A stretch of DNA of 64,000 nt, taken from IMG/VR virus record IMGVR_UViG_2703718861_000013. One strand, 5' to 3'. The DNA comes from a virus (Duplodnaviria; Heunggongvirae; Uroviricota; Caudoviricetes). Numbering within the stretch: position 1 is the stretch's first letter; each line of letters opens with the position of its first letter. Position numbers: made by a program. Shown one piece after another: positions 12,001 to 15,000 of this stretch.

Positions 12001-15000
12001 GAAGTTAATACCTGTTGATATCAAATTTGAAAAGGACCTTGGATATCCATGCGCAATCATGCCTGCACTGGTCGGGTATTATAACTGGAAAAGAACTCCT
12101 TATGATCGACCGATTTATACCACATCCACTGGTGCTACAGGAAATAAAATATATTCCTGTGAGCATTATTCCGGCGGTGCAACATGGGATATTCGAAAGC
12201 CGTATATAGATAAGGTCCTGGTTATTAATACATCAGTATATGATTAGTTGAAGCGAGTCTTTAATATTCATTTAAAATGTCTAAAAAGATGTATTATTAA
12301 AAAGTTTAGCGTGTTATCTGAATACAGGATATCTTAAATGAAGAGTATAGCAACACTGGTTGTGTGTGCAATCTCCGGGATTGCCTGTGTAAATTTATCT
12401 GCACATGCAGCAGAAGGAAACCATACAATTTCTCTGGGGTATGCGCACTTTCAGTTTCCGGGACTGAAGGATTTTGTAAAGGATGCGACTGCTCATAACA
12501 GGGAGACTTTCAGTCATTTCGTCAACAGAAACTACTTTTCTTCATTGGGCGAATATACAGATGGTCGGGTCAGTGGATATGAAGGCAAGGATAAAAATCC
12601 ACAGGGCATTAATATCAGGTATCGCTACGAGATAACGGATGATTTTGGCGTTATCACCTCTTTTACATGGACGCGTTCTCTCACTAACTCACAGACATTT
12701 ATTGATGTGCAGTCAGCCGATCATACCAGGAAGATTAAGAATCCGGCAGCTTCTGCCAGAACGGATATCAGGGCGAATTACTGGAGTCTGTTAGCGGGGC
12801 CTTCATGGCGGGTTAATCAGTACATGAGCTTATATGCGATGGCAGGGATGGGCGTTGCTAAAGTTAGCGCTGACCTGAAAATTAAGGACAATATTAACAG
12901 TAGTGGCGGATTTTCTGAAAGCAACAGCACGAAAAAAAACTCCCTTGCGTGGGCTGCAGGTGCACAGTTTAACCTGAATGAGAGTGTTACACTGGATGTG
13001 GCTTACGAAGGTTCCGGCTCTGGCGACTGGCGCACGAGTGGAATTACTGCTGGCATTGGCCTGAAATTCTAACCTGTATCCGGTAACCGTTTACTACCCG
13101 CTGTGATGGCGGGTTTTTTATTGCCCGTACAGGGCAAAAACCGTAAATTATGCGTGGGTGCCTTTCGGCTGATGGCTGGAGGGTGAACCTGAAGGCCTGA
13201 TGTGGAAAGGCCCCGAGTCAACTTAACGTTAACCCGAGGCCCTAACACTTCGTACCTTGACAAGTAGAAGGTTAGCGCCTCTCCACTCAGGAGGCAAGCG
13301 CTATGTCGCAAAAATCGCTTATCACCGTCACAATTTGTATGACGGTTATCTTCACTATCTGGATGTTGCACGGTTCGCTGTGTGAGTTCCGGCTGAATTT
13401 GTGGGGAGCGGAGTTTGCGGCGTTCTTACAGTGTAAGCAGTAGGAAAACCGCGACGGGGACGAAAGTCCCCGTCAACTGGTTGCTGAGGTTCAGCCGATA
13501 TGGCACCCGTTTCAGGTGAGAGAATGAACGATAAAATTCTCCGGTATATGCAGCGTGTGGTGAGAAATTCCCGCAACCCTGAATTTATGAATGAAGTTAA
13601 AGACGCCTGCCTTAAAAAGCAGGCGTTTTGTTTTGAGGCACCTGATGGCTTTCTGGTGCTGCGTTCTGTGCTCAGTGCTGATGGTATCCCTTATGTTCTG
13701 GTGTTGCTGGGCGTGTGTACGGGGAGTAACAGCGTTGAGCGTTATCTGCCGGAGGTGAAGACATTAACCCGTCTGGCTGGCGGACGTTGGGCTGAATTTC
13801 ATACGGCAAGGCGGGGATTTATCCGGCTGGGAAAACGTCTGGGCTTTGAGCGAATGCCGGATGATGAGGATGGCTTCATGGTGTTCAGGATAGCGGTCTG
13901 ACTGCCACAGTTTTCATCATCGTGTTTAAACCAACATTGCAATTCACATTCTGACCCTGCTCCGGCAGGGTTTTTTTATTATCCAGGGGGCCATTATGGG
14001 TGGAAGTAAAGGTGGTGGTGATACCAAAGTAAAACCAACAGCAGCGCAAATAGCACAGGAAGAAGTGGCCTGGAAAGGGTGGCAGGATTACAAAAATATC
14101 CTCCGCCCGGCTGAAGATAACTTCATGGAAAAGGTCGATGACCTGAACAGTGAGCAGCAGTACGACAATATCGCTGGCACCACAAATCTGGGGTATCAGA
14201 AACAGTTTGGCGAAGCACGGAAGGAGCTGGCGGGTAATCTTGCTCAGTCCGGTGTTGACCCGTCCAGTGGTCGCTTTAACGCGGTAATGAATGCGAACCA
14301 GAGTGATCAGGTAACCGGGCAGATTGACACAACCACACGGGGGCAGGTATCGCAGGCAGATAAGTATGTTGCCGGGCTACAGGATGTTGCAGCTCTCGGT
14401 TCAGGTCAGAAGGCGGATGCGTTACAGAGTTTTAACTCGCTGGCAGACAGCAGTCTGGCAAAAGCTAAATCGGACGCACAGGCTGCGTTTACGAAACAGC
14501 AGGGGCGAGCCTCTCTTGTTGGCGCTGGTTTGGGTGCGGTAGGTGCATATGCGATGCATAAGGCTGGTGGTAGCGGAGGAAGTGGCGGTGCTAAAACACC
14601 GGGCACCGGCGCTAATGCCATTCAGCATCAGGCTCAGAACTGGAGACTGTGATTATGGAGTACGGTAAATACGAAACACTTGCGAGATACGGTTATACCG
14701 GAGCTGCCCGTCCACAGGGTGACTGGCAGACGTCAGCAGCGCTGACACGCCAACAATACGACGACTGGCGAACCAGATATTTGCCCCGCGTGGCAAGGCT
14801 GGCTGACCTTGGCGAGAACAACAGCCTGATGAATGCACAGCTTGCCCGGGTGGGCGGCCTTGCCACTTCCAGTCTCCGTACAGCGCAGATGGCGCAGGAT
14901 AACCAGATGGCGAGATACGGGGTAAGCCGCCCGGATAATCCCGACAGTAATACGCTGGGGTTACGTAATGCCCTGGCAATTGCTGGCGCGAAAAATGGTA

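Follow-up and report, generated by a model that had tools for sequence, protein, structure and literature searches.

The stretch of DNA analysed here, referred to throughout as the window, comprises 64,000 nucleotides (nt) of the IMG/VR virus record IMGVR_UViG_2703718861_000013, a member of the Caudoviricetes. The subject of this article is a short locus within it at which a candidate type I toxin-antitoxin module of the hok/sok type lies between lom, the gene of an outer-membrane moron, and the next late gene of a prophage. On the plus strand the locus holds a putative promoter, a leader, a small toxin open reading frame (ORF) and a 3' untranslated region (UTR) that ends in a fold-back element, and on the minus strand it holds the gene of an antisense RNA complementary to the leader. 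An earlier note, made by a model from the sequence of the window, had singled out this ORF as an unannotated, second and divergent hok paralogue placed between the lom moron and the internal-protein genes. The ORF, its peptide, the leader strings and a stem-loop that it listed are all present at the positions it gave, the placement is correct, and paralogy with hok is upheld by Pfam, NCBIfam and PHROG matches and by homologues.

The toxin gene and its messenger RNA

The toxin ORF occupies 13303-13443 of the plus strand, from an ATG at 13303 to a TAG at 13441-13443, and its 46 codons, which are also found in the output of a mechanical ORF finder, specify the peptide MSQKSLITVTICMTVIFTIWMLHGSLCEFRLNLWGAEFAAFLQCKQ. 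A strong Shine-Dalgarno (SD) sequence, GGAGG at 13290-13294, lies 8 nt 5' of the start codon. The peptide matches the Pfam profile PF01848 (HOK_GEF) at 33.2 bits (E 4e-8; gathering score 22), with residues 8-44 aligned onto profile positions 6-42 of 42, and it matches PHROG 251 ("MokW-like host killing") at 85.8 bits. BLASTP aligns it with HokD, encoded elsewhere in the window, at 39% identity across 33 residues; the two have LCE.R.....E.A.F in common, as the earlier note had seen, but the E.AAF that it also ascribed to both is wrong for HokD, which has E.AVF. Together with the match to the Rfam family RF01794 described below, these matches establish the locus as real and beyond chance. Homologues of the peptide number 56, almost all of them 46 amino acids (aa) long, in Escherichia coli, Shigella and Salmonella, and the frame keeps a length of 45-47 codons throughout 21 copies from five species. 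Among diverged alleles the ratio of nonsynonymous to synonymous substitution rates (dN/dS) is 0.18-0.44, and the subfamily can be recognized by the signature M[SL]QK[SP]...WML[HR]GSLCE.R...GAEFAAFLQCK, in which Cys27 and Cys44 are both conserved.

Transcription of the toxin gene would start at a putative weak promoter (13121-13149, plus strand) that was read from the sequence and consists of a -35 hexamer TTGCCC at 13121-13126, a 17-nt spacer and a -10 hexamer TAAATT at 13144-13149, matching 8 of 12 consensus positions; the putative +1 is G 13156, 6 nt past the -10. The TTG and TA..(A/T)T hexamers and their spacing are kept in every context in which the module occurs, despite unrelated surrounding DNA. 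For comparison, 16 further copies of 76-99% identity, taken from other contexts, were aligned with that of the window, and across these 17 the unit from +1 to the end of the fold-back element (13156-13508 in the window, about 355 nt) measures 351-356 nt. A permissive Rfam search of 601 nt, a check that the earlier note had proposed, matched RF01794 to 13156-13314 (plus strand) over model positions 1-157, end to end, with an E value of 5e-7. The lack of any covariance-model hit, one of the observations that the note had set against its own reading, does not apply here, although the match scores under the Rfam gathering threshold.

The 5' end of the mRNA, at which the RF01794 match begins, is a nearly invariant tac-like element (GGGTGCCTTTCGGCTGAT, 13156-13173, plus strand) that reads GGGTGCCTTTCGGCTGATGG among the copies. 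In the full-length RNA it is predicted to pair with a complementary, fbi-like fold-back element (TCAGCCGATATGGCACCC, 13491-13508, plus strand), which was identified from folding and compensatory changes and forms the right edge of the conserved module. The full-length RNA has a minimum free energy of -152.7 kcal/mol (z -6.15) and is closed 5' to 3', with a pairing probability of 1.00 in the window copy; the same closure is present in the minimum free energy structures of all 17 aligned copies, in those of five further copies from other records, and in the consensus fold of the 17. Within the closed form, GGAGG and the first base of the start codon are held against an anti-SD strand (CGCCTCTCC) in a hairpin at 13273-13303 (plus strand), which corresponds to helices 8 and 9 of the consensus (97-100% of cells paired) and leaves the SD with a predicted probability of being unpaired of 0.00-0.02. 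The 3'-UTR contributes a conserved hairpin, GACGGGGA-cgaaag-TCCCCGTC (13453-13474, plus strand; helix 17), in which 100% of cells are paired and four pairs show compensatory changes. This is the stem-loop that the earlier note had taken to be terminal; it is conserved and covarying, but the fbi element lies beyond it. Folding of 13156-13476, in which the 3' end is trimmed, moves the 5' end to an alternative partner formed by invariant columns, GGAAAGGCCCC at 13204-13214 (plus strand), which would act as a refolding switch.

The predicted fold-back, which the earlier note had anticipated from known hok mRNAs, occurs in every copy and is accompanied by covariation. In the consensus structure 98.1% of cells are paired, compared with 36-47% in slid controls, and 11 pairs are changed on both sides, compared with 0-3 in the slid controls and with none of 500 shuffles reaching the observed level, although these figures come from a small sample of related sequences and from a structure derived from the same set. 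The duplex between the tac-like and fbi elements is maintained through 12 distinct sequence combinations, including G-C to A-U swaps in Citrobacter and S. diarizonae, and the compensatory changes in the 5'-3' helix convert CGGCUG/CAGCCG to CGACC/GGUCG and CGAU/AUCG (Citrobacter braakii, S. diarizonae).

The module thus described can be set against the hok/sok locus of R1 and the hokA-E loci of E. coli (PF01848, RF01794). Shared with these are a small single-pass membrane peptide with an LCE.R / E.A.F core; an mRNA of about 350 nt with its 5' end on a 3' fold-back, a buried SD and predicted refolding after 3' trimming; and a cis-antisense RNA of about 67 nt whose promoter -10 lies just upstream of the SD hairpin. 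It differs from them in the length of the peptide (46 vs 49-52 aa), in the second Cys of the subfamily near the C-terminus (LQCK), in its RF01794 score of 37.9 bits, in having no conserved mok and, in the copies from Shiga toxin (Stx) phages, in having no terminator after fbi. A useful internal control is provided by hokD (relF) of the Qin prophage (56953-57375, plus strand), which belongs to the same family and has the same overall mRNA plan, and which differs in its higher Pfam and Rfam scores (82.9 and 115.3 bits), in a Mok-type extension with ATG at 57065, and in possessing its own terminator. The fbi element of hokD, CCTCAACGCACCC, lies at approximately 57327-57339 with the terminator directly after it.

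An antisense RNA published under other names

A Sok-type antisense RNA gene is located on the minus strand from about 13262 to about 13196, its ends having been placed from its promoter and from a published length of 67 nt. The promoter (13269-13297, minus strand), for which conservation and published promoter data both argue, has a -35 hexamer TTGCCT from 13297 to 13292, a 17-nt spacer and a -10 hexamer TAACCT from 13274 to 13269, and the extended -10 reads CGCTAACCT (13277 to 13269). The box AGGTTAGCGCC is invariant in the 17 aligned copies, with AGGTTAGTGCC as its S. diarizonae version, and AGGTTA corresponds on the minus strand to the TAACCT -10. In 933W the antisense promoter has TTGACT and an 18-nt spacer, and copies overall conform to TTG..-N17/18-TAACCT. 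The RNA would consist of a 5' tail of about 19 nt, a 16-bp hairpin (z -6.3) and a CCUUUCC tail, and it is fully complementary to the hok leader from about +41 to +107. Each of the 16 copies compared folds this hairpin with 5-22 kcal/mol greater stability from the minus strand than from the plus strand, an asymmetry that argues for selection on the minus-strand RNA.

The same region has a literature of its own. A "microRNA-size" RNA of phage Phi24B, 24B_1, was reported between lom and vb_24B_43, with a published 20-nt minus-strand sequence, TAACGTTAAGTTGACTCGGG, and a predicted promoter, p24B_1, with -35 TTGACT and -10 CGCTAACCT (PMC4426718). The 20-mer is found in the window from 13231 to 13212 (minus strand) with 0 mismatches, where it spans the loop of the Sok-type hairpin together with its 3' arm, and p24B_1 maps onto the Sok promoter at 13297 to 13269. 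In their review, Sy and Tree equate the 24B_1 RNA with EcOnc53, detected by Hfq-CRAC and Northern blotting, and with sRNA108, give the length of EcOnc53 as 67 nt by dRNA-seq and Term-seq, consider the 20-mer to be probably a degradation product, and call the mechanism unclear (PMC7873438). Hfq was found by Bloch et al. to bind the long form with a dissociation constant of 25 nM (PMC10732415). EcOnc53/sRNA108/24B_1 (Tree et al., 2014; Gruber and Sperandio, 2015; Nejman-Falenczyk et al., 2015; Bloch et al., 2023) therefore shares DNA, strand and promoter with the Sok-type RNA; what differs is its published treatment, as an orphan Hfq-binding small RNA (sRNA) or as a regulator that acts in trans, like a microRNA, on d_ant and sdhB. 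As an independent RNA gene lacking a cis target it does not appear, since the adjacent hok leader is fully complementary to it and its promoter is the Sok promoter. On the identity of the sequences, the candidate antitoxin RNA of the 46-aa hok module is the published EcOnc53/24B_1, and the 20-nt 24B_1 is a fragment of its hairpin. The cis-antisense RNA that the earlier note expected from hok precedent is accordingly represented by a conserved minus-strand promoter and hairpin in the region it suggested, and by an RNA that others have detected (PMC4426718; PMC7873438).

Among open-access papers and bioRxiv, to which the literature search extended, no work was found that recognizes the toxin gene overlapped by EcOnc53/sRNA108/24B_1, or that treats 24B_1/EcOnc53 as an antitoxin or the locus as a toxin-antitoxin system. 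Both 24B_1 papers, a 2025 review by the same group and the main text of Tree et al. (2014) use none of the terms hok, sok and toxin-antitoxin, and hok and sok are absent also from the review of Sy and Tree (PMC7873438). The sole searchable paper in which both "24B_1" and "hok" occur treats them separately.

Genomic setting and relatives of the module

The upstream neighbour, lom, encodes an Ail/Lom outer-membrane protein (12338-13072, plus strand; annotated in identical RefSeq DNA) and is followed by an intrinsic terminator, ACCCGCTGTGATGGCGGGT and then a T run (13096-13121, plus strand; found by a terminator scan), that marks the left edge of the module. Homology across contexts begins just beyond this terminator, at the promoter (about 13121), and stops at 13508, the end of the fbi element, the flanks being unrelated; the module is a self-contained cassette of about 390 bp (approximately 13121-13508), and the prophage whose late region received it behind lom is of Stx type and 933W-like (Sepvirinae). 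Downstream lies the homologue of L0129 and vb_24B_43 (13524-13901, plus strand), a PHROG 610 match of unknown function. The start assigned to this gene by the PGAP annotation, ATG 13500, overlaps the fbi element; ATG 13524, which is used in the record of phage P27, has its own ribosome-binding site, AGGTGAG, at 13514-13520. Within the same ORF, about 100 nt past fbi, a terminator-like hairpin with a T run is present at 13608-13636 (plus strand), which could be the end point for hok-promoter transcripts in lysogens.

A 461-nt region that contains the module recurs, always between lom and the L0129 homologue, with 100% identity in several E. coli chromosomes (O104:H4 among them) and with 97-100% identity in the phages 933W, VT2-Sakai (Sp5), Phi24B, P13771 and Ss-VASD. 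The ORF has not gone entirely unlabelled. It carries no annotation in the original 933W, VT2-Sakai and Phi24B records, nor in the ORF track available to the earlier note, so that "unannotated" was apt to that extent; however, RefSeq/PGAP labels it 'Hok/Gef family protein' (WP_000078907.1), and some phage records label it "MokW-like host killing" or "small toxic polypeptide". The gene is thus already known by annotation and is uncharacterized as a toxin-antitoxin system.

Elsewhere, copies of the module occur in other Sepvirinae phages, in P2-like phages and prophages, in two plasmids and in an O157 genomic island. The P2-like copies sit at the ogr end, their prophages occupying several integration sites, and copies from Salmonella enterica, S. 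diarizonae, E. albertii and C. braakii retain the entire plan. At least one copy is present in 1674 of 5426 complete E. coli genomes (about 31%), with a maximum of eight per genome; a scan of genome contigs yielded seven loci. Three of these, on contigs labelled Xanthomonas pisi (857 bp), Planococcaceae (a metagenome-assembled genome) and Vagococcus, would have suggested a wide host range, but they carry near-identical DNA of E. coli type, are probably contamination and were not used. Among Stx-phage copies, comparison of L004, L013 and L014 with window 13303-13443 distinguishes two hok coding alleles of about 68% identity, around both of which the leaders and 3' UTRs are 92-100% identical, and one protein, P0005, resembles a recombinant between the two. 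This pattern suggests that the toxin core is exchanged in cassette-like fashion among Stx-phage copies.

The window itself opens with the late region of one prophage (1-25.6 kb), continues through ynfF/ynfE and adjoining chromosomal genes, and passes into a Qin-type prophage with DicF, hokD and csp genes, and the lom-adjacent hok and hokD therefore belong to different prophages. The lom-adjacent locus also had to be distinguished from hokW-sokW of Sp5, a working type I system that aids phage release, in which HokW is toxic and is neutralized by its antisense RNA (Takada et al., 2021; PMC8621323). Identity with hokW-sokW was rejected, HokW being 51 aa long and the published primers matching the hokD-like type (PMC8621323): primers YO-357, YO-351 and YO-560 encode MKQQKAM...VDYESEK, and their leader is identical to window 56950-57000. 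The two loci have in common a Hok type I module on a Stx phage, a link to Hfq and the antisense -10 TAACCT, which is the hexamer mutated to silence sokW, as read from the primers (PMC8621323); hokW-sokW differs in its 51-aa product with the MKQQKAM start, in the 49-nt primer arm that equals the hokD leader, and in being located elsewhere on the phage. It follows from the primer mapping that the lom-adjacent gene is a second Hok module on these phages.

Some further features of the window were noted in passing. In strain 05-3629 the locus is 100% identical, and its chromosome is collinear with the window only to about 47 kb, without the Qin-type prophage, and lacks window segments of approximately 25638-27309 and 33622-40171. 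Rfam matches to sRNA-Xcc1 occur at 29082-29167 and 29618-29702 (both minus strand; 74.5 and 53 bits), near ant genes where the Stx-type prophage ends, beside the ynfG/ynfF insertion site, and may be anti-sRNA-type sRNAs belonging to the prophage end. The virion/internal-protein block includes an 83-aa glycine-rich ORF (15111-15362, plus strand) that PGAP names 'bacteriocin'. DicF (51697-51748, minus strand) and two cspA-type thermoregulator leaders (60422-60845 and 63323-63707, both plus strand) are as expected of a Qin-type prophage.

Proposed control of the toxin, competing explanations and implications

The peptide family, the conserved and covarying mRNA plan and the expressed antisense RNA are the grounds on which the locus is regarded as a genuine member of the hok/sok group: a complete, probably functional type I toxin-antitoxin module with a distinct 46-residue Hok subfamily as its toxin, a reading to which we assign a probability of about 0.85. 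The toxicity of the peptide and the antitoxin action of the antisense RNA would follow from this membership, and in the literature searched no report was found of either toxicity of the 46-aa peptide or protection by the antisense RNA. That is one of several points that weigh against the reading. The only hok of these phages to have been tested, hokW, is another locus. The RF01794 score of 37.9 bits is below the gathering score of 59, and RNA annotation pipelines are therefore silent here; at gathering thresholds Rfam returned nothing at the lom-adjacent locus and matched only the hokD side (56953-57127, 115.3 bits). The NCBIfam models are likewise not reached, with 38.4 bits against a cut-off of 89 for the HokA equivalog NF007290 and 22.7 bits against 73 for the Hok family NF007279, though both models are narrow, since HokD of the window also falls under both cut-offs; by these scores HokA is the closest named type, yet the 46-aa protein is not a HokA orthologue. 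A simple sigma-70 scan of the locus gave no promoter on either strand, both candidates lying just under the thresholds, and the promoters were for this reason judged by conservation and published promoter data. A terminator follows fbi by about 25 nt where the module lies outside Stx phages, but Stx-phage copies have none and run directly into the ribosome-binding site of the next gene. In Phi24B the antisense transcript was detected by reverse transcription PCR only post-induction and was absent from the uninduced lysogen (PMC4426718), which is unexpected for a constitutive antitoxin. The narrow sample behind the covariation, the absence of a conserved mok and the modest size of the control effects predicted in its place belong on the same side of the account.

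With regard to mok, none of the three reading frames ahead of the hok ATG has a start codon that is conserved among 21 copies, and 933W and Phi24B have no mok-like frame whatever; the same script, applied to hokD as a positive control, recovered the in-frame Mok-type ATG at 57065 (70 aa). The sole mok-like frame in the window copy, a 42-codon ORF in the -1 frame with a TTG start (13257-13385, plus strand), was rejected as mok, and is probably a fortuitous or vestigial frame, because it has no SD and is missing from most copies, among them 933W and Phi24B with their identical peptide. The textbook route by which Sok controls hok translation is therefore inapplicable as such. Since mok is missing from the whole subfamily, terminator-bearing copies included, its absence is a family trait rather than local decay.

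Thermodynamic prediction suggests instead a mok-independent control route with modest effects. Removing the 3' end of the RNA in folding lets the 5' end find its alternative partner at 13204-13214 (15 of 17 copies), with a new hairpin taking up the anti-SD strand, and the predicted accessibility of the translation start then increases modestly, from about 0.25 to values of 0.32-0.48, in the majority of copies though not in every one; blocking the stretch complementary to the antisense RNA returns accessibility to the closed value. In the cycle that these folds would allow, the weak promoter would give rise to mRNA from 13156, and in full-length and read-through RNA the 5' end would be locked on fbi (13491-13508) while the hairpin buries the SD and start, so that no Hok is made. 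The stronger convergent promoter (13297 to 13269) would meanwhile produce the antisense RNA of about 67 nt (13262 to about 13196). Removal of the mRNA 3' end would move the 5' end to 13204-13214, and the new hairpin would display the antisense target as the translation start loosens. Binding of the antisense RNA is predicted to hand back the anti-SD strand and re-close the start, and would probably trigger cleavage of the duplex. If the unstable antisense RNA were lost, Hok would be made and would enter the inner membrane, with collapse of membrane potential and ATP. How the RNA refolds and what the module does for its host or phage are matters of inference, and prophage stabilization or phage exclusion, the roles proposed in the earlier note, are guesses.

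A different role is suggested by the position of the gene in the late operon and in the direction of late transcription, namely that a second Hok is released at induction and that the resulting membrane damage advances or improves phage release. The hokW-sokW system of the same phage type does double phage release, with a RecA-dependent switch-on, and the antisense promoter of the lom-adjacent module stands head-on to late transcription, which could lower the level of Sok after induction. Opening of the hok start by late read-through was rejected, however, when read-through RNAs of 700 nt and 1100 nt were folded and were predicted to keep both the closure and the buried SD hairpin unchanged; late transcription alone should therefore not release Hok. 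The Phi24B deletion described below gave faster induction and more efficient lytic growth, the opposite of what loss of a lysis helper would lead one to expect, albeit from a construct that also harms the lom terminator and the hok SD, and since plasmids, an island and the ogr end of P2-like prophages also harbour the cassette, its function is not bound to a late operon. A contribution to lysis is on these grounds rather unlikely.

The genetics of 24B_1 bear on both the toxin module and the view that the RNA alone matters. Delta24B_1 is described as a 189-nt deletion, and its arms end at 13104 and resume at 13292, so that window 13105-13291 is lost. With it go the 3' half of the lom terminator, the hok promoter, the leader except its last 11 nt, the antisense RNA gene with its -10 hexamer, and part of the hok SD, while the ORF stays. 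Conversely, the insert of the "overproducing" or complementing plasmid pUC18_24B1, 12993-13556, holds the complete module, toxin ORF and fbi included. The effects reported with these constructs were lower lysogenization, lower survival of infected cells, faster induction and, with the plasmid, lower ATP. Because the deletion removed the control region and the plasmid carried the toxin gene, these phenotypes can be read as compatible with a disturbed Hok/Sok balance, which we infer in the knowledge that the constructs cannot separate it from an RNA acting in trans. That the phenotypes arise wholly or largely from such an imbalance is a tentative proposition, with a chance that we would place slightly below even.

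If the RNA mattered and the ORF were incidental, the Hok ORF would be silent or vestigial, and a trans-acting sRNA or a microRNA-like 20-mer would target d_ant, a region upstream of S, and sdhB. The published effects of deletion and plasmid on lysogenization, induction and ATP were interpreted in this way; the 20-mer pairs weakly in vitro with sdhB mRNA, and the long form binds Hfq, an association typical of trans-acting sRNAs. Neither the deletion of 13105-13291 nor the insert of 12993-13556 separates the RNA from the toxin module, however, and the binding to sdhB was below 10% at 100 nM and was not seen with the precursor, quite apart from the opinion of Sy and Tree on the origin of the 20-mer. 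An incidental ORF is hard to reconcile with an RNA that is perfectly complementary to the leader of its neighbour, an intact Hok gene evolving under purifying selection, and with an arrangement that reproduces hok/sok geometry exactly. Module and RNA are also found together outside the Stx phages for which d_ant and S were put forward as targets, namely in P2-like prophages, plasmids, Salmonella and Citrobacter. An exclusively trans-acting RNA is for these reasons distinctly improbable, and a dual role of the antisense RNA, in cis and in trans, is possible.

Several chromosomal hok loci of K-12 are reportedly inactivated, a finding ascribed to Pedersen and Gerdes in 1999. A comparable relic, which would have lost mok and terminator on capture by a phage and would no longer make toxin, could account for the missing mok, the missing terminator past fbi in Stx-phage copies and the Rfam and NCBIfam scores under threshold, but it is very unlikely indeed given a frame that stays intact at 45-47 codons across five species (21 copies) and shows a dN/dS well below 1, a strong GGAGG SD 8 nt before the ATG, compensatory changes that uphold the RNA helices, a subfamily-wide absence of mok even where terminators are kept, and an antisense RNA whose expression others have detected.

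As a gene call the locus is ordinary, Hok-family genes being common in E. coli prophages and a RefSeq label being in existence; what matters is the connection between the RNA and the toxin. Of the two Hok modules present in 933W-type Stx phages, one has been studied as such, and the other has for a decade been represented in the literature by its antisense RNA, under three names. If the link between the reported phenotypes and the toxin module holds, the tools behind the "prokaryotic microRNA" claims need to be read again. If the proposed control is true, the 46-aa subfamily would show antisense control of Hok translation without mok, by hand-back of the anti-SD strand, and the mok-less module would constitute a natural test case for the control of hok translation without a leader frame.

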